Positions 866 through 46,772 of a stretch of DNA of 54,518 nt are shown here, in pieces. Made by a program: the position numbers and the translations under genes. The stretch's first letter is position 1. Every line of letters starts with the position of its first letter. Source of the DNA: a candidate division WOR-3 bacterium (GTDB taxonomy: Bacteria > Hydrothermota > Hydrothermia > B15-G9 > WFZT01); NCBI GenBank assembly GCA_027053075.1, contig JALUEE010000023.1, positions 1 to 54,518 on the forward strand. Reading direction: 5' to 3'. The notes beneath the pieces were generated by a model that worked only from the letters and a program-made list of their open reading frames with translations, searched no databases and was not told the DNA's origin.

Positions 866-1126
866 GTTAGAACCTCCTTTTTTATTTTTGAGGAGGTGGA
901 GAGTGGAATCCTCCACCGAAGTGGGTATAGCCTAACCTCCTGAATCGAGTGATTCAGGCACAAATAACAATCCAGGCTTATACCCCAGGTGGAGGGACCA
1001 ATCTTCCTACCGGGGTCAAGCCCCAAGGAGGGGAAAGATCTAAAAACCACTCATTCCACCTCCTCTAAAGTTTTTCTCTATATTGTGAGTGATAACCATA
1101 ATAAATAACAACAAACATTATAGGAG
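123..1126 (-). mobile_element. IS110 element, left portion (left end at about 1124-1126, putative CT core, TATAAT at 1122-1117)
   Basis: Recombinase plus ~260 bp upstream non-coding end. Sequence switches abruptly to a repeat-family copy at 1125. A -10 box sits immediately inside the end, as expected for circle-junction promoters. Confidence 0.75.
890..1065 (-). ncRNA. Putative IS110 bridge RNA (target-binding loop followed by donor-binding loop)
   Basis: Closing stem GAGGAGGTGGA..GAGTGG / CCACTC..TCCACCTCCTC encloses two stem-internal-loop-hairpin domains. Loop segments match the flanking target (1026-1036 equals 1125-1135) and the IS end. Confidence 0.75.
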
Positions 1127-1222
1127 GAGGGGAAATTTACGATTGGTCTGCAATTATCAGTGAGATTATGAGTATCCGTTGGATGAGGTGGCAACTAAAA
1201 ATTAGATTTTTAGAACGAGCTC
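1125..1222. repeat. Right half of a REP-containing MITE-like element split by the IS110 insertion
   Basis: Colinear similarity to about 3075-3173. Ends in TIR-like TTTTAGAACGAGCTC. Confidence 0.8.
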
Positions 1223-1242
1223 ACTCTAATTTGGGGGAAAGT

Positions 1243-1289
1243 TTAGGGGTGTGGGGCCGCGCACTTCGTGCGCAGCCCCACACCCCTAA
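1243..1289. terminator. Long GC-rich hairpin downstream of the oxidoreductase gene (likely terminator)
   Basis: TTAGGGGTGTGGGGCCGCGCAC-TTC-GTGCGCAGCCCCACACCCCTAA, near-perfect inverted repeat ending just before the stop at 1297. Confidence 0.6.
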
Positions 1290-1296
1290 TAAAATC

Positions 1297-2649
1297 TTAC
1301 GGCAGTTGCTTTAATGCTACTCTACATGCCTGCTGAATGGGCTCCCATACGGGAGATAATCTCGGTGTATAATCAAAATCTACAAACAGCAGGTCCTGAA
1401 TTCTCATACCCTGAGTAATGGCCATGGCAGCAATAGCATTAACACGTTCCGTTCTCTCCGGCCCCACTGCCTGAGCTCCCAGGATACGTCCCGAAGGTTT
1501 TTCAAATACAAGTTTTATCCATACGGGTTTGTGATTTGGCATATAATGTGCTGCATTGTTGGCTTTAATCAAAACTGACCCCACGTTGAAACCTTCTGCC
1601 TTTGCCTCTTCCTCAGACAATCCTGTCTTTGCGACAATCATTCCAAACAGCTCTGTAGATTGAGTCCCAATTACTCCGGGGAATTTAAAACTACCACCTG
1701 CTGCCACATCTCCGGCAACCAGCCCGGTCTTGTTTGCAATATCACCGAGCGGAACATACATCGGCTTGCCAGTAATTAAATTCTTCACCGAAATACAGTC
1801 ACCTGCGGCAAAAATATCTGGGTCATTCGTCTTCATCTCACAGTCAACCTTTATGCCACCATCGGGATTAAGCTCGAGACCAGCATCTATCGCAAGTTCA
1901 TTTCTTGGTTTTACCCCCACGGAAAGGAGAACAAGATCAGCTTCAAACTCCTTACCGCCAGCAACAACACTTTTAACCCTTCCATTTTCACCCTTTATCT
2001 CTTCAACGGGCGAGGAAAGGGCAAATTTAATACCATTTGCCTCCAAATGTTCCTTAACCATGGATGAAACATCGGTATCGAAGTTTTTCATAATCCTATC
2101 GAGCATCTCGACAACGATAACATTTTTACCGTATTTCACAATACCTTCTGCCACTTCGAGGTTAACATAACCCGCCCCGACGAGAACAACATTTTTAACC
2201 CTATCACTCTCAAGCTCATTCCTGATTACAACACCCTCATCGAGTGAATGGAGCGTGTAAACGCCCTCAAGGTCAACCCCTTTAATCGCTTTTGGTCTAA
2301 TGGGCTCGGCACCTGTTGTAATGATCAATTTGTCGTATGGAACCTCAACAATCTCGCCAGTATCTGTTCGCTCTGCCACAACAATTTTCCTCTCACGGTC
2401 TATTTTCACCGCTTTGTGAAATAGCTTAATCTCCACATTTCTTGTCTTTTCGAACTTCTCCTTTGGAACGGACACAAGATCCTCAATATTTTTGACCTCT
2501 CCAGAGAGATAGTACGGTAAACCACATAAACCATAGGAAACCCATTTATCCATTTCAAGAACAATAATTTCTCCCTCTTTGTCCTTTCTTCTGATCTGAG
2601 AAGCAGCAGAGAGTCCAGCAGCGTCTGCTCCTATTATCAAATACCTCAT
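1297..2649 (-). CDS. CoA-disulfide reductase / NADH oxidase family FAD-dependent oxidoreductase
   Basis: IIGADAAG FAD motif, SYGLCGLPYY single redox Cys, VGAGYV NAD motif, FAAGD, C-terminal YTPRLSPVWEP dimerisation motif. Confidence 0.9.
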   Translation of the reverse strand: MRYLIIGADAAGLSAASQIRRKDKEGEIIVLEMDKWVSYGLCGLPYYLSGEVKNIEDLVSVPKEKFEKTRNVEIKLFHKAVKIDRERKIVVAERTDTGEIVEVPYDKLIITTGAEPIRPKAIKGVDLEGVYTLHSLDEGVVIRNELESDRVKNVVLVGAGYVNLEVAEGIVKYGKNVIVVEMLDRIMKNFDTDVSSMVKEHLEANGIKFALSSPVEEIKGENGRVKSVVAGGKEFEADLVLLSVGVKPRNELAIDAGLELNPDGGIKVDCEMKTNDPDIFAAGDCISVKNLITGKPMYVPLGDIANKTGLVAGDVAAGGSFKFPGVIGTQSTELFGMIVAKTGLSEEEAKAEGFNVGSVLIKANNAAHYMPNHKPVWIKLVFEKPSGRILGAQAVGPERTERVNAIAAMAITQGMRIQDLLFVDFDYTPRLSPVWEPIQQACRVALKQLP

Positions 2650-2869: not shown

Positions 2870-3173
2870 AAGCTTGTTCAAAAAATGTTACCTCAGTCTT
2901 CCATTAATCAGTGAATGTACAATGGTGGGAAATGTGCTATTTAGTGATTCACGTCTCTTCACCCTCCCTTCCCTCCGGGAAGGGAGGGCTGGGGTGGAAT
3001 GGGGAAATTATGATCGGCAAAACTTTGGGCTTATTTATTTTTCCCATTCTCCCCTACCCCCTCCTTCCAAAGGAAGGAGGGGGAATTTATTGATTGGCAT
3101 GCGATTGTCAGCGAGGTTATGAGGATCCGTTGCGAAAGGTAGCAACAAAAATTTAGAATTTTCGAATAGGCTC
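2870..3173. mobile_element. ~304-bp MITE-like element carrying an inverted REP doublet, with 9-bp target duplication
   Basis: TIRs AAGCTTGTTCAAAAA / TTTTCGAATAGGCTC. ACTAAAAAT at both 2861-2869 and 3174-3182. Internal hairpins near 2962-2988 and 3059-3081. Confidence 0.75.
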
Positions 3174-3225: not shown

Positions 3226-3297
3226 GCGGGAGTAGCTCAGAGGTAGAGCACAACCTTGCCAAGGTTGGGGTCGCGGGTTCAAATCCCGTCTCCCGCT
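3226..3297 (+). tRNA. tRNA-Gly(GCC)
   Basis: GCGGGAG/CTCCCGC acceptor stem, CAACC-TTGCCAA-GGTTG anticodon arm, GGTTCAAATC T-loop. CCA not encoded. Confidence 0.97.
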
Positions 3298-3351: not shown

Positions 3352-5052
3352 ATGAGATGGATTAGACTGAAAGAGCAGGCAAGTGCGGAAGAATTAAGAA
3401 ACAAATTATCCATTCCCCTTCCCATCGCAAAAGTCCTTTCAAACCGTGGATTCAGCGTTGAAGAAGCTCGGATATTTCTGAATCCCAAGATTGAGGACCT
3501 CTATTCACCATTCCTATTAGATGGAGTAAAGGAAGCAGCAGAAAGGGTCAAAAGGGCAATAGAAAACAATGAAATCATTCTTATCCACGGAGACTATGAT
3601 GTTGATGGTGTTACTTCTCTTGCGCTTCTTTATAGAAACCTCAAAAAACTCGGGGCAAAAAATGTAATTCCCTATATTCCAAGTAGATTTGAAGAGGGTT
3701 ACGGCCTGTCTGAGAAGAGTATTGAAATTGCAAAAGAACGTGGTGCAAGCCTCATTATAACCGTTGACTGCGGTGTCACAGCTGTAGAAGAAGCAGAAAT
3801 GGCTACAAAAGAGGGAATTGACCTGATTATCACGGACCATCATGAGCCGGCTGATAAGATTCCACGGGCTTTCGCAGTGATAAACCCAAAATTAGGAGAG
3901 TACCCTTTCCCTGACCTCGCGGGGGTTGGGGTAACCTTTAAGTTTTTGATGGGTCTTTACACGTACCTCGGGCAAAAACTCACCCCGCTTTACTGGGACC
4001 TTGACCTTGTTACCCTTGGCACAGTGGCAGACCTTGTACCTCTCATTGATGAAAACCGCATCCTTGTCAAGTTCGGCTTAAAAACGTTAAACAAAAGCCT
4101 CAAAGCAGGGATCAACGCGCTTAAAAAAGTAGCACGGCTCAATGGCGAGCTACGGACATGGCATATCTCTTTCATCATGGCACCACGTCTCAATGCGGCA
4201 GGTCGTCTTTCCCATGCCCAGAAAGCCTTTGAACTCCTTGTTACAACCGATGGCAAAGAGGCTGCAAGGCTTGCAAAAGAATTAAACGAAGAGAACAAAA
4301 GACGCCAGCAGATTGAAAGCAAAATCTACGAAGAGGCTAAATCTCTTGTTGAACAGTACGAGATGTTTAACGACATGGTTCTTGTTCTTGGGAGTCCGAG
4401 CTGGCATGAAGGTGTAATCGGAATTGTGGCCTCAAAACTCGTTGAAGACTACTACCGCCCCACTCTTATGATCAGTGTAAATGGTGAAACCGCAAAAGGG
4501 TCGGGGAGGAGCATTCCGACATTTCACCTGTTCAATGCCATGAGAAAGGTTGAGGACCTGTTTATGGCCTTCGGCGGCCACAAATATGCAGCCGGATTCC
4601 GGATATCGACCGCTGACATTGACGAGCTTAGAAAAAGGATAAACGAAGTCGCAAGAAAAATGCTCACGTCCGAAGACCTTATTCCGGAAGTGCATATTGA
4701 CGCAGAAGTTACACTTCAAGACCTGGACGAAAAATTCTTTGAAGCTTACGAGATGCTTTCACCCTTTGGGCAGGGCAATCCACGGCCTGTATTTTGCATA
4801 AAAGAGGCGGAGGTAGTTGGGGAGCCCAAAGTAGTCGGAGAAAATCACCTGAAATTTGCTCTAAGGCAGGGAAATGCACACATCTTTGCCTTTGCTCCCC
4901 AAAAGGCATCTTTGATTAAAAAAGTCCGTCCGCTCTCGAGAGTGGACATCGTCTTTACGTTTACAAGAGACGAGTGGGCAAGAAACCCCAGGTATGAGCT
5001 GAGGGTTATTGACATTAGATTTAAAGGAGGAGAAGATGAAAAATCTCAGTGA
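3352..5052 (+). CDS. recJ: Single-stranded-DNA-specific exonuclease RecJ
   Basis: GDYDVDG, ITVDCG, TDHH, GTVADLVPL, PRLNAAGRL, GSGRS, FGGHKYAAG, PFGQGNP motifs. Confidence 0.96.
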   Translation: MRWIRLKEQASAEELRNKLSIPLPIAKVLSNRGFSVEEARIFLNPKIEDLYSPFLLDGVKEAAERVKRAIENNEIILIHGDYDVDGVTSLALLYRNLKKLGAKNVIPYIPSRFEEGYGLSEKSIEIAKERGASLIITVDCGVTAVEEAEMATKEGIDLIITDHHEPADKIPRAFAVINPKLGEYPFPDLAGVGVTFKFLMGLYTYLGQKLTPLYWDLDLVTLGTVADLVPLIDENRILVKFGLKTLNKSLKAGINALKKVARLNGELRTWHISFIMAPRLNAAGRLSHAQKAFELLVTTDGKEAARLAKELNEENKRRQQIESKIYEEAKSLVEQYEMFNDMVLVLGSPSWHEGVIGIVASKLVEDYYRPTLMISVNGETAKGSGRSIPTFHLFNAMRKVEDLFMAFGGHKYAAGFRISTADIDELRKRINEVARKMLTSEDLIPEVHIDAEVTLQDLDEKFFEAYEMLSPFGQGNPRPVFCIKEAEVVGEPKVVGENHLKFALRQGNAHIFAFAPQKASLIKKVRPLSRVDIVFTFTRDEWARNPRYELRVIDIRFKGGEDEKSQ

Positions 5053-8009: not shown

Positions 8010-8150
8010 ACCCATTGCACCCCAACCCTCCCTTACATTTGGGAAAGGAGGGTGGTCTTAAGCGTTACTTTCTCACGAAGCAAAGATATCAGAGAGTCAA
8101 AGATTTCCCCTCCTTCACCGGGGAAGGAGGGGTTAGGGGAGAATGGGGAA
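8010..8150. repeat. REP-like hairpin doublet (same family as in 2870-3173 and 46511-46661)
   Basis: CCCTCCCTT..AAGGAGGG and CCCCTCCTTC..GAAGGAGGGG hairpins with G-rich GAATGGG tails. Confidence 0.75.
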
Positions 8151-9218: not shown

Positions 9219-9650
9219 ATGTAGCCCTCACCCCCCTCTCCCGCAAAGCGGGAGAGGGAGATTGATGAATTATTATTGAAATTTTGGCAGTTGTTTCCCC
9301 TCACCTGACCTTTCTCCGCAAAGAATTTATGCGGGGAGAGGAAGTTTTATTTTTCACGGACTTAAGTTATCTTCATTCTATGGCCTAATGAGAAAATAAA
9401 AATATCATGTCATCCAAAAACTCCACTTAAAGGCAAAAACTTTCCATTTTTAAGAGACAGAGCCCAAAAACAGAAGATATTCTCCACAGAGACATTGCCT
9501 GCTGTTGAAAAATCCCCAAAATACTCCCCTCCCCCGCAGGCTTTGCCTGCGGGGGAGGGTAAGGGAGGGGGTTTCCCGCTTGAAACCTTTAAAATTCAAG
9601 ATGTAGCTCTCACCCAATCCCTCTCCCACAAAGTGGGTGATGGAGAAAGT
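9219..9650. repeat. Cluster of four REP-like CCCTCTCCC..GGGAGAGGG hairpins
   Basis: Units near 9219, 9297, 9525 and 9601, reverse-complement-similar to units at 39195-39800. Confidence 0.75.
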
Positions 9651-12455: not shown

Positions 12456-12473
12456 CAATAAGGGACAATCTAT

Positions 12474-12595
12474 GAGCCTGTTCGAAAAATTCCATATCCT
12501 TTGATTTTTAATGAAAAATTTACCCCAAACTTCTTCCTCCCCCCACGCACTTTGTGCGTGGGGGAGGATAGGAGGAGGAATTTTCGAACGAGCTC
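12474..12595. mobile_element. 122-bp MITE (family A)
   Basis: TIRs GAGCCTGTTCGAAAA / TTTTCGAACGAGCTC. Flanks GACAATCTAT / GAAAATCTAT (10 bp, one mismatch). Internal CCCCCACGCAC-TTT-GTGCGTGGGGG hairpin. Confidence 0.88.
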
Positions 12596-12639
12596 GAAAA
12601 TCTATTGAAAGGATTGATTTTCGGGGTTAAAATGTAAAT

Positions 12640-28515: not shown

Positions 28516-29697
28516 TTAAATCTCCTCAATAATTTTATTTAATATTTCATCGGTCTCTTTTGAAATTTTATTGAGAATTTTCGAGCGCTGTTCAAACCGT
28601 ATCATGGAATTTAGAAACTGCCGCTGTATTTGAATCGCTTCGTCAGTTGTTAATGCAAAGTGCAATAAACCTTTTGATAAATCGTTAGTTATGTACATCT
28701 CCCTAACTACTCTTTCATAATCTCCCTTTCCATAAGCCAAATCTACTACCTTTCTAATACTTGTTCCAACTGCAATCCCAATTCCAATTCCTATGATTCC
28801 AGGAGGAAAAATTAAGGACAAACCTCCCATGATTCCCCCTACAATTGCTCTCCTTGAACCATCAACTGCGATGTTTTTAAATGCTTCATTCAGAGAGATT
28901 TCACCTCTACGATATAACAAGTAGTTATTAAGTGATGATATCCCAATGCCGATAACTGCTCCTATTAATGCTCCCTCACTTATTCTTCCAACAACATCTC
29001 CAAAAGTTATGTAACTCTTAAAATCACCCTGTTCAACAATCTTCATAAGTCTTTCGGCGGATTCTCTGTTATGCTCCACATTTCCATAAACCATAAGGGG
29101 GTTTTTGATATTCATCTCTTTTGCAACTTCAATTAATTCTTTAGGGCCTGACAAAACAATATGCTCGTTATAATTCGGATTATGCAGGAAATTGTCTATT
29201 GTTTGCTTTAATACATGTGGATCATTGCTCCAGTTGCTTTTTACTTGAATTTGTTGAACTATTTTTCCCGTAAAACGACTCTTTACAACAACATCAATGC
29301 CAGGAACATTACTTGTAATGTCTCCTGCACTATTTGTTGCATACTCTGCTTTATACAGTAAACCCTTTAATGATCCATTTATTGCTCTAACAACATCAAC
29401 CTCACCCGCACCATCTCCTTGCAATCTTCTAAAAATTTGGTCTAAATTATTAGGGTTAACTTCAAGGCGAGCATATAACCAATCTTTTGCACTTTGAGCA
29501 TCTTCAAAAATTCCACTTGCAGAAAATTTTCCTCCAAGTAACTTAGCAACCTCTAAATCTCTGATATATTGTTGAGCATTAGTAGTAATATAACCGTAAG
29601 CTGCTGCACTAGATGCAAAATCTATAAAGTTAATCAATCCGTCTTTACCAAGACTTTTTAAGTTCTGTGCTAGTTCTATATCTGAATTATTCTTCAT
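28516..29697 (-). CDS. Hypothetical protein with nuclease-like D..QxK motif and glycine-zipper membrane segments (cassette gene 2)
   Basis: 393 aa. GEVD..PGIDVV..QIQVKS; GALIGAVIGIG; GGIMGGLSLIFPPGIIGIGIGIAVG; C-terminal coiled coil. Confidence 0.75.
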   Translation of the reverse strand: MKNNSDIELAQNLKSLGKDGLINFIDFASSAAAYGYITTNAQQYIRDLEVAKLLGGKFSASGIFEDAQSAKDWLYARLEVNPNNLDQIFRRLQGDGAGEVDVVRAINGSLKGLLYKAEYATNSAGDITSNVPGIDVVVKSRFTGKIVQQIQVKSNWSNDPHVLKQTIDNFLHNPNYNEHIVLSGPKELIEVAKEMNIKNPLMVYGNVEHNRESAERLMKIVEQGDFKSYITFGDVVGRISEGALIGAVIGIGISSLNNYLLYRRGEISLNEAFKNIAVDGSRRAIVGGIMGGLSLIFPPGIIGIGIGIAVGTSIRKVVDLAYGKGDYERVVREMYITNDLSKGLLHFALTTDEAIQIQRQFLNSMIRFEQRSKILNKISKETDEILNKIIEEI

Positions 29698-29983
29698 TTT
29701 TCCCCTCCAAGACTTTTGTCGCTATAGACTTCACTCTTGGGTCAGTTTCTTTTGCTACAATTTTTTTAATAATGTTTTTCGGTGTCTTGGGATGGACACA
29801 AATTAATTCTCTTACCGTTGGATCAGGGCACTGCCATAAATCAAGAATGAGGTCTAACGGACAATCTTCCCGTTTAAGTGCCATTTTAAAAATTTCATAG
29901 TTATTGCTTTTCAAGATGTTATCTATTAGATATTGATCCCATTTTCCCATTTCAATTTCTCTTTTTATTTCGTTTACGTTCAT
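29687..29983 (-). CDS. Small helical-repeat (LRV/HEAT-like) protein (cassette gene 1)
   Basis: 98 aa. Repeated CP..L..L...PD..VR..I..HPKTP pattern; overlaps the start of the next gene. Confidence 0.65.
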   Translation of the reverse strand: MNVNEIKREIEMGKWDQYLIDNILKSNNYEIFKMALKREDCPLDLILDLWQCPDPTVRELICVHPKTPKNIIKKIVAKETDPRVKSIATKVLEGKNEE

Positions 29984-30015
29984 CTTTGCTTTAACAAATT
30001 TTTGCTAATTTTTAC

Positions 30016-39194: not shown

Positions 39195-39800
39195 ATTTCT
39201 CCTCTCCTCGCATAAATTCGTTGCGGGGAGAGGTCAGGTGAGGGGCTACAACTTATAATTTTTATAGCAAAGGTCAATCATTCTCCCTTTCCTGCTTCGC
39301 GGAAGAGTGAAAGGGTTTACATTTTGATTTTTTAAATTTTAAGAGGTATGCCCCTCCTTTGCCCTCCCCTGCAAGCGAAGCTTGCGGGGGAGGGCAAATT
39401 TTCTGCCATTTCTGGCCACAATCTTCGCTCAGGGAAAATTTTCGGGTGTTCTAAGCGCATAATTTGTGCTTGCAGGGATGAATATGTGACTTTTTAACCA
39501 CCAGAATCGGCTTGTAAGTTCAATCATTAGACCCTACATCCAAAAACTTCCTCTCCCCGCGTAAATTCATTGCGGGGAGAGGTCAGGTGAGGGGCAACGT
39601 CAAAGTTTTTTGCAAATTAAAGATTAAATGAATGAGCATATTGAGTTGGATTTACGTTTGATGACCCACCAAAAAGATTCTCTTCTCCCCGCATAAATTC
39701 GTCACGGGGAGAGGGCAGGTGAGGGGCTACATCTGAATTTTTAAAATTCCCAAGAGAAAAGCCTCGCCCACTTGCAAAGCAAGTGGGCGAGGGGGAAACT
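39195..39800. repeat. Cluster of six REP-like hairpins
   Basis: Three near-identical CTC(C/T)CCGC..AAATTC..CGGGGAGAGG.CAGGTGAGGGGC units (about 39200, 39550, 39683) plus three related hairpins; irregular spacing. Confidence 0.8.
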
Positions 39801-46037: not shown

Positions 46038-46389
46038 GAGCTCGTTAGAAAATCCCCACCTCCTATCCTCCTGACGTCACCCACGAATTTCTGGATAACA
46101 ACACCTTATCCCTTGCCACGGCTTCAAAAAGGTGTACTACGCTCTATATTTGGACACTCTCTTTATTCGGTATAAACGAATATATCCTTCAGGTAAAATT
46201 GTTGATTTACTACGAAAAATTGAATTTCTCGCCCAGATTGTATTGTATAAATATACATGACAAGCAAAAACATGGGTGATGTCAGCCTCCTATCCTCCCC
46301 CCACGCACGATGTGCGTGGGGGGAGGAATAAGGTGGTGGGCAAATTTTTCATTAAAATTCAAAGGTTTTGAAATTTTTCGAACACGCTC
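46038..46389. mobile_element. MITE family A copy (reverse orientation) interrupted by a second element
   Basis: Ends GAGCTCGTTAGAAAA / TTTTCGAACACGCTC; flanks TATCACTTCT / TATCACTCCT (10 bp, one mismatch). Confidence 0.85.
46071..46285. mobile_element. 215-bp non-autonomous element (MITE family B) with 12-bp target duplication
   Basis: TIRs CTGACGTCACCCA / TGGGTGATGTCAG; CCTCCTATCCTC at 46059-46070 and 46286-46297. Confidence 0.88.
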
Positions 46390-46510
46390 TATCACTCCTT
46401 GACTCAAATACCTATTAATCATTGGCTTTATAAATTTTCGATTGATTGCATTCCTTGTTGTGAAAAGTTTACAAAAGAATTTAGGCAAGACGTATTTGTA
46501 TGATTTTCGT

Positions 46511-46661
46511 TCTTCCCCATTTTCCTAAACCCCTACTTTCCGCGGGAAGTAAGGGAAATTTTTGGCTTTATGGTAAAGATTTCGTCCATGGCGTGCTTGC
46601 TCGAGCAAAAATAGAGCTCCCTCCCTTCCCGTTGGGAAGGGAGGGCTGGGGTGGAATGGGT
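46511..46661. repeat. REP-like hairpin doublet
   Basis: GGGAAGGGAGGGCTGGGGTGGAATGGG identical to the unit near 2977-3003, plus a degenerate partner. Confidence 0.7.
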
Positions 46662-46772
46662 AATTTATTGCCATCAAGATTAGAACTTGTCGATGGAGAT
46701 AGCAGCGGGAGAAATAGTTAACAGGAAGTCTCCGATATTACCAGGTCAAACTTCCAGCTTTAAAATATCCCT

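Follow-up and report, generated by a model that had tools for sequence, protein, structure and literature searches.

A predicted IS621-type bridge RNA in an IS110-group insertion sequence found in the palindromic repeats of a candidate division WOR-3 bacterium

The model element IS621 inserts into REP sequences, forms a promoter at its junction and depends on four guides within its RNA (PMC11208160; PMC11208158). In the IS110 group the left end is longer than the right and the sub-terminal inverted repeat (STIR) is short, and in the IS1111 group the RNA lies in a long right end and the STIR measures 7-17 bp (PMC11208160). Guide lengths across 32,190 loci range from 12 to 40 nt (10.64898/2026.10.21.760802); copy-out and half-match are dealt with in 10.64898/2026.08.31.748434, and excision in PMC13626964. 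For ISPpu10, also a REP-targeting IS110 element with a CT core, the structure of the REP has been described as a second determinant (10.64898/2026.03.19.712850). CazIS110-1, from Caloranaerobacter azorensis, is a thermophilic system that has already been reconstituted (10.1101/2025.10.25.684509), and ssr9 of ISPpu9 represents IS110-related RNA modules that are unlinked to a transposase (PMC12288879).

The window, meaning the whole stretch of 54,518 nucleotides analysed here, harbors the left end of an IS110-group insertion sequence with a predicted IS621-type bridge RNA region at 890-1065 on the minus strand. In the genome to which it belongs (G000; 2.44 Mb in 114 contigs) the element is represented by 14 left and 12 right ends. 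In our preferred reading, to which we assign a probability of about 0.93, the predicted bridge RNA likely guides a DEDD/serine recombinase to a CT in the stem of host palindromic repeats. Set beside the published descriptions of IS621, the element has in common the RNA in the left end, the guide order left target, right target, left donor, right donor (LTG-RTG-LDG-RDG), a CT core, a 9-nt LTG, a predicted discontinuous RDG, the same predicted handshake dinucleotides, a putative junction promoter, REP targets and a DEDD-plus-serine recombinase, with the layout of the RNA assigned by analogy. REP targeting, the trait by which IS621 itself is known, is not new here. On the other hand, the loops are enclosed by a 17-bp outer stem where IS621 has a preceding 5' stem-loop, the left-donor match extends over 8 nt, the non-coding ends are both long (about 260 nt on the left and 180 nt on the right), and the STIR is 11 bp against 2-3 bp in the IS110 group. 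The position of the RNA and the longer left end are IS110-like traits, and the 11-bp STIR falls in the IS1111 range. All four guides lie upstream of the recombinase gene, and the RNA model R1, introduced below, matches in this genome left ends and the orphan RNA alone, not sequence 3' of the gene, where an IS1111-type guide RNA would lie.

The recombinase gene of the window copy is divided as follows.

1-127: end of another multi-copy element, inside the recombinase gene, identical over 122-127 nt at five other contig ends
123-865, minus strand: IS110 recombinase gene, 5' part, 250 codons (PF01548, E = 2.5e-24)
Contig C52, 4101-3625: remaining 3' part of the recombinase gene, with the right end of the window copy; broken near 4100 by a second element

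The frame, which starts at 865 on the minus strand, agrees with the other copies for 250 codons and then meets the foreign element at 127-123. As it stands the window copy is unusable because its recombinase gene is interrupted, and because the C52 half is interrupted as well it is dead, inactivated by two nested insertions of other elements. The interrupting ends at 1-127 and on C52 are presumably IS256-like. Interruption of IS110 copies by other insertion sequences is frequent and is also seen on C61, on C89 near 29990 and on C11 and C265 of the sister genome G004.

Whole copies of the element are present on C14 and C98, each with a recombinase frame of 431 aa. The whole recombinase scores 235.7 bits against NCBIfam NF033542 (IS110 RNA-guided transposases; cut-off 140), and residues D9, E61, D104, D107 and S314 are invariant in an alignment of 31 sequences, comprising the query and 30 of its 150 matches. 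The C14 copy has the two domains that characterize the IS110 family, an N-terminal DEDD RuvC-like domain (PF01548) and a C-terminal Tnp domain with its serine; the window copy lacks a continuous C-terminal domain. The best solved relatives, by sequence as well as by fold, are IS621 and ISCro4. Compared with the 328 aa of IS621, the protein is longer by virtue of about 74 extra residues between the domains (C14 residues about 165-230), predicted as three confident helices, and of a C-terminal helix and tail at residues 390-431; identity to IS621 in the structural alignment is about 20%. An extra insertion between the domains is not addressed in the portion of PMC11213020 used for comparison. 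A search of 60 related genomes for close protein relatives outside the genus gave a close match in G004 only, and distant recombinase matches, at 29-34% identity, in three others. The host is likely a thermophile, as had been supposed in the first-pass annotation, because the genome encodes a reverse gyrase that scores over the cut-off and the best-matching sequencing run (79% of words) is labelled as a hydrothermal vent metagenome.

The boundaries of the element were established from an empty version of the same locus in G004 (L097:1483-1510). The first 1,493 bases of L097 match C52:2139-3618 and the next 192 match window positions 1125-1314, with an intact palindrome between them; since the empty site joins these two stretches, the right end of the window copy is the one at C52:3625. 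The ends and their targets are composed of the following features.

1125-1126, minus strand: left copy of the CT core, with its right counterpart at C52:3626-3625
1120-1124, minus strand: right donor, the start of the left end, which is complementary to the RDG and changes with it (three states)
1117-1122, minus strand: perfect -10 hexamer, whose partner -35 hexamer lies in the right end at C52:3646-3641
1111-1121, minus strand: 11-bp sub-terminal inverted repeat, flanking the donor; partner at C52:3643-3633
1127-1135, minus strand: left target, an arm of a host palindromic REP-like repeat, with 1133-1127 as the 7-nt left target proper
3058-3082: empty type-A target palindrome
8104-8132: empty type-A target palindrome

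CT is found at both ends of the element and as a single copy in empty orthologous sites. Because it is all that donor ends and empty targets have in common, in both of the subtypes described below, any other core is ruled out and the CT core proposed at the outset is upheld. The perfect -35 hexamer of the right end and the perfect -10 hexamer of the left end would stand 18 nt apart on a circle. Among the joints listed in four contig sets, a type of data that omits rare forms, no backward joint corresponding to a circle junction was found; empty-site joints that skip about 1,740 nt are present in three of the four runs. The right end (C52:3625-3805 and its copies) is unusually long, about 180 nt, and repeats its promoter-bearing terminal segment internally in inverted orientation.

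Some left junctions are slightly longer than the others. The first three bases of the left end, which finish with a second CT, occur once more between core and left end at 4 of 21 left junctions (C50, C56 and C22 of G000 and C80 of G004), and C98 has one extra base. Empty copies of the lengthened forms number none for type B and two for type A. Re-insertion at the second CT or slippage are possible origins of the extra bases.

The RNA itself, with its layout drawn by analogy with IS621, is predicted to contain the following parts, all on the minus strand.

890-1065: predicted bridge RNA body (folding z = -6.2, covarying stems)
1026-1034: LTG, 9 nt including the core; 1025 is likely a linker
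1003-1008: RTG, core plus 4 nt; agrees with the empty orthologous site at 6/6 positions (core + 4) and with the C52 right flank at 5/6 (core + 3)
963-971: LDG; positions 971-964 have the same sequence as the terminal 8 nt of the right end
937-945: RDG, predicted to be discontinuous; 941-937 and 945-944 pair with seven donor bases, 943-942 being looped out
1012-1024: inner hairpin of the target-binding loop, four pairs invariant in 9/9 sequences
949-961: inner hairpin of the donor-binding loop, in which 961-959 would pair with 951-949; across 13 sequences 96% of cells are paired and compensatory changes occur
1001-1002: putative handshake guide in the target loop, complementary to positions 6-7 of the donor and assigned against PMC11208158
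935-936: predicted handshake guide of the donor loop, 936 being complementary to target position 7

None of 200 shuffles folded as well as 890-1065, and the longer segment 870-1135 gave z = -5.6. When the two-loop structure was imposed on nine sequences, 88.1% of cells were paired and 13 pairs showed two-sided change, against 4.4 in shuffles and 2-5 in slid controls; for the two donor-loop helices in 13 more diverse sequences the values were 95.1% and four of eight pairs, the shuffle controls overstating the covariation because the structure was drawn by hand from these same small and related sets. Some tension with the preferred reading arises from the minimum-energy fold of type A, which pairs the RDG with the loop of the donor-loop hairpin, but covariation favors the 961-959/951-949 hairpin over this arrangement. 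An alternative hairpin that would hide the RDG (958-951 with 946-939) can be drawn for type A and for the orphan RNA described below, and is absent from type B and the homologues. The target-loop handshake dinucleotide is identical to that of wild-type IS621 in the comparison with PMC11208158. In the AT-rich leader, nine bases at 1111-1103 repeat 970-962 of the LDG, which may be chance.

No Rfam family covers the bridge RNA at the gathering score, the only hit in the window to pass being a tRNA at 3226-3297. Among 14 sequencing runs listed, no RNA run contains the sequence, which speaks neither for nor against transcription. An RNA model, R1, trained on a set that includes the orphan on C33, found seven matches in G000, namely C33:137136-137303 and six left ends, of which five are full and one is cut. 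Among 100 relatives it matched three, G004 strongly and G030 and G046 weakly. The weak match at G030:C6:76145-76302 (E = 1.1e-5) lies directly 5' of a 29%-identical IS110 gene.

A bridge RNA with guides in the order LTG-RTG-LDG-RDG, programmed against the REP hairpin of its own genome, had been put forward in the first-pass annotation, and the fold, the covarying stems and the complementarity of the guides all bear this out. The matches cited there hold for the LTG side, where 1036-1026 is identical to the flank at 1135-1125 and 1036-1025 to the empty repeat at 8104-8115; for the RTG at 1008-1003, which is complementary to the core and 4 nt of the empty repeat at 3071-3076; and for the RDG at 941-937, which is complementary to the core and the first 3 nt of the left end. 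The perfect -10 hexamer at 1122-1117 is confirmed as well.

Comparison across copies and homologues, made by eye, extends these matches. The RDG agrees with the start of the left end over the core and two further bases in all 24 elements in which both are visible (five in G000, four in G004, L020, L022 and 13 of 19 further loci), in three states, the third being that of L058, L060 and L061. The LDG agrees with the right end at 6-8 positions in 16/16 such elements, in four states. As many of these rows are near-identical relatives, the evidential weight lies in the number of guide states and not in the number of rows. Most homologues have a mismatch at left-donor position 7, a position described as tolerant in IS621 (PMC11208160). 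LDG base 963 would form a wobble with the core C, and is a C, giving a perfect pair, in G004:C80 and L020. On the target side, the right flank follows the type-A pattern for at least 3 nt past the core at 8 of 12 right ends and the type-B pattern for 5 nt at the remaining four. The copy on G004:C4 has another LTG, which fits its flank at 9/9 positions, one of them a wobble, together with an RTG of the B type, to which the empty site on G000:C11 conforms. Thus guides, ends and targets change together, both between subtypes and among homologues that are 40-53% identical, which is the covariation that had been anticipated for a guide RNA.

The target repeat itself is far more abundant than chance would allow, in keeping with the proposed REP targeting, for which filled and empty versions of a locus are also at hand. 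The 11-nt target motif (8 + 3 nt) has 101 matches on both strands, with palindromic repeats counted twice and filled sites included, against 0.58 expected from base composition; the extended motif (11 + 3 nt) has 16. Insertions use both arms of the palindrome, which differ from one another at -10 and -11. Intergenic palindromic repeat families occur in the window at 1243-1289, 2813-2848, 9234-9646, 12472-12604, 39197-39796 and 46296-46668, and empty type-B targets at 12535, 46327 and 49002. In one complete chromosome (L047, L048, L056 and L057), a 41%-identical homologue is inserted at four places that are not palindromic; about 7 nt are matched by its RTG, and one left flank fits at about 11/13 positions.

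The left ends of G000 fall into nine of type A, like that of the window, and five of type B (C14, C98, C22, C47 and C66), which differ at the first base after the core; the base of the RDG that faces it differs correspondingly. Subtype B, whose recombinase is about 90% identical to that of type A, has the same left donor and a right donor changed at that one base, and its target loop is directed to a second family of repeats. A B-type right flank adjoins each of the two whole B copies, and the left flank fits the LTG at 8/9 positions at C14 and C66. In the C89 copy (29113-29990) a type-A LTG occurs beside an RTG that is not of that type, and the left flank belongs to another family of palindromes; the copy may be a hybrid, a case of trans mobilisation or an assembly chimera. 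A further guide version is carried by G004:C80, and contigs from other runs show one that fits the odd left flank of C89.

How far base pairing to the RNA suffices for the choice of site is the question on which the alternatives turn. The first-pass annotation had placed the LDG at 966-956, a segment that ends in CT, predicted the right end from it, and proposed an unusually long left target guide of 11-12 nt on the basis of the 11-nt identity with the element's own flank and the 12-nt match at 8104-8115. In this exact form the model is very improbable. Not one of the 16 right ends (12 in G000, this copy's own among them, and four in G004) fits 966-956, and bases 961-959 of that segment form one strand of the covarying hairpin. 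The LDG is instead placed 5 nt upstream, at 971-964, where it passes the right-end test: the 8 nt preceding CT are identical to it in 11 of the 12 right ends in G000, that of the window copy included, the remaining one differs at a single base, and the four in G004 all fit. As for the LTG, identity over the full 11 nt is confined to the window copy and C96, the other type-A copies matching over 8-9 nt with the exception of C89, and bases 1135-1134, which provide the extra identity, are not conserved among copies and differ in the other arm of the palindrome. There is no clear enrichment of the 11-nt match because it occurs at 2/9 type-A left ends while 16 of the 101 available motif matches offer it, and the twelfth base, 1025, falls where IS621 has its linker U. 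The standard 9-nt LTG is, to judge by these flanks, enough, although with guide lengths that reach 40 nt in the survey of 32,190 loci even a longer guide would not be unusual. A different objection is that the guides and repeats are of low complexity, skewed in purines and pyrimidines, and the RTG and RDG short, such that the matches might be fortuitous and protein or DNA structure alone might pick the site. We give this hardly any credence, as each guide varies together with the DNA it would pair with, between subtypes and in distant homologues alike, the AT-rich donor guides, which have nothing in common with the repeats, being among those that do so.

A more serious proposal refines the main reading rather than excluding it. 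Here the RNA would give the address, and the hairpin or cruciform of the repeat, together with a strict right guide, would decide most of the site choice, the left guide being permissive. Insertions do sit in palindrome stems, and in subtype B the RTG is strict (4/4) and the LTG loose, with only about 3-6 Watson-Crick matches at C47, C98, C22, L020 and G004:C35; since left flanks fit so poorly at these loose type-B sites, base pairing alone does not explain them, which also counts against the main reading in its simplest form. ISPpu10 is described as having the same permissive left and strict right guide, as well as an effect of the stem-loop (10.64898/2026.03.19.712850). Yet type-A left flanks fit at 8-9 of nine positions in 8/9 copies, the variant in G004 fits no less well, and the loose B sites could come from trans action by other guides in the population, of which variants are seen. 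Moreover, the target stem-loop of ISPpu10 lies 5' of the core, whereas here the hairpin spans the core, which is inside one palindrome arm, with either arm used. This proposal therefore stands as a possibility, a little short of even odds.

Returning to the preferred reading, of RNA guidance to CT in the repeat stems, the features that can be read directly from the DNA are the element boundaries, the CT core, the filled and empty locus, the co-changing guides, the covarying stems and the catalytic residues. The steps that follow would proceed as in IS621 and CazIS110-1. A circular copy would join the right end to the left end, and the junction would build a consensus sigma-70 promoter with the 18-nt spacer, from which the bridge RNA would be made. 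The donor loop would then bind the circle junction through the LDG (971-963) and RDG (945-937), and the target loop would bind the repeat through the LTG (1034-1026) and RTG (1008-1003), with the handshake bases assisting strand exchange. CazIS110-1 is likewise a multi-copy IS110 element of a thermophile with a two-loop bridge RNA, and is reported to make mostly target-loop-only RNA.

A further bridge-like RNA, first found by BLAST, stands apart from the element.

Contig C33, 137136-137303 (L004:637-805), and G004:C180:1752-1920: orphan bridge-like RNA

It occurs once per genome, at a locus common to both sister genomes that is bordered by an ABC transporter gene and by a gene whose family is unclear, with neither an adjoining recombinase gene nor a recognisable left or right end. 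Its target loop has a sequence of its own, and a T-rich tail follows the RNA. It also turns up, in the form of loose ends, in X1, X6 and X10, three runs that come from three studies. Within the genus it is present in G004 only and was not detected in the other four genomes (82-96% complete), G001 having other sequence at the locus. Between G000 and G004, 6/166 bases differ (3.6%), three of them in one stem arm and none in the 41-nt target-loop block, against 28/140 (20%) at fourfold sites of the next gene. The intergenic background, a mixed set that includes IS ends and repeats, differs at 583/7,449 positions (7.8%), a rate at which about 13 differences would be expected, and the neighboring spacers differ by 3.8% and 5.5%, such that the conservation of the orphan appears only modestly above a heterogeneous background. 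In the nine-sequence alignment its target-loop closing stem does not pair, and no sigma-70-like promoter was found around it. The RNA is likelier a relic. That it works in trans with the resident recombinase, either as a decoy retained by the host to dampen transposition or as a guide to other targets, is unlikely; the idea of a decoy comes from its RTG being trapped within a 30-nt palindrome and from a left donor loop shortened by 4 nt. A literature search, covering main texts, found no end-less stand-alone bridge RNA, the nearest case being ssr9 of ISPpu9. This too is a small RNA module apart from any transposase gene, but its copies are described as keeping the element end boxes and forming circles (PMC12288879), whereas the orphan has no recognisable ends.

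The mechanism is already known, and the value of the locus lies in the material it provides rather than in the discovery of a kind; the clade may already be covered, either by the supplementary tables that accompany PMC11208160 or within the set of 32,190 loci in 10.64898/2026.10.21.760802. What it offers is the bridge recombinase of a bacterium that encodes reverse gyrase, a protein of a long type without a close solved structure and available as whole copies on C14 and C98. It also offers a natural reprogramming series, in which near-identical recombinases are accompanied by at least five target-loop and two donor versions in two sister genomes, with which guide tolerance, cross-mobilisation and the part played by the target hairpin can be tested directly. 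Finally, the orphan RNA would allow a cheap test of whether hosts keep bridge RNAs in order to control or redirect their own IS110 elements.
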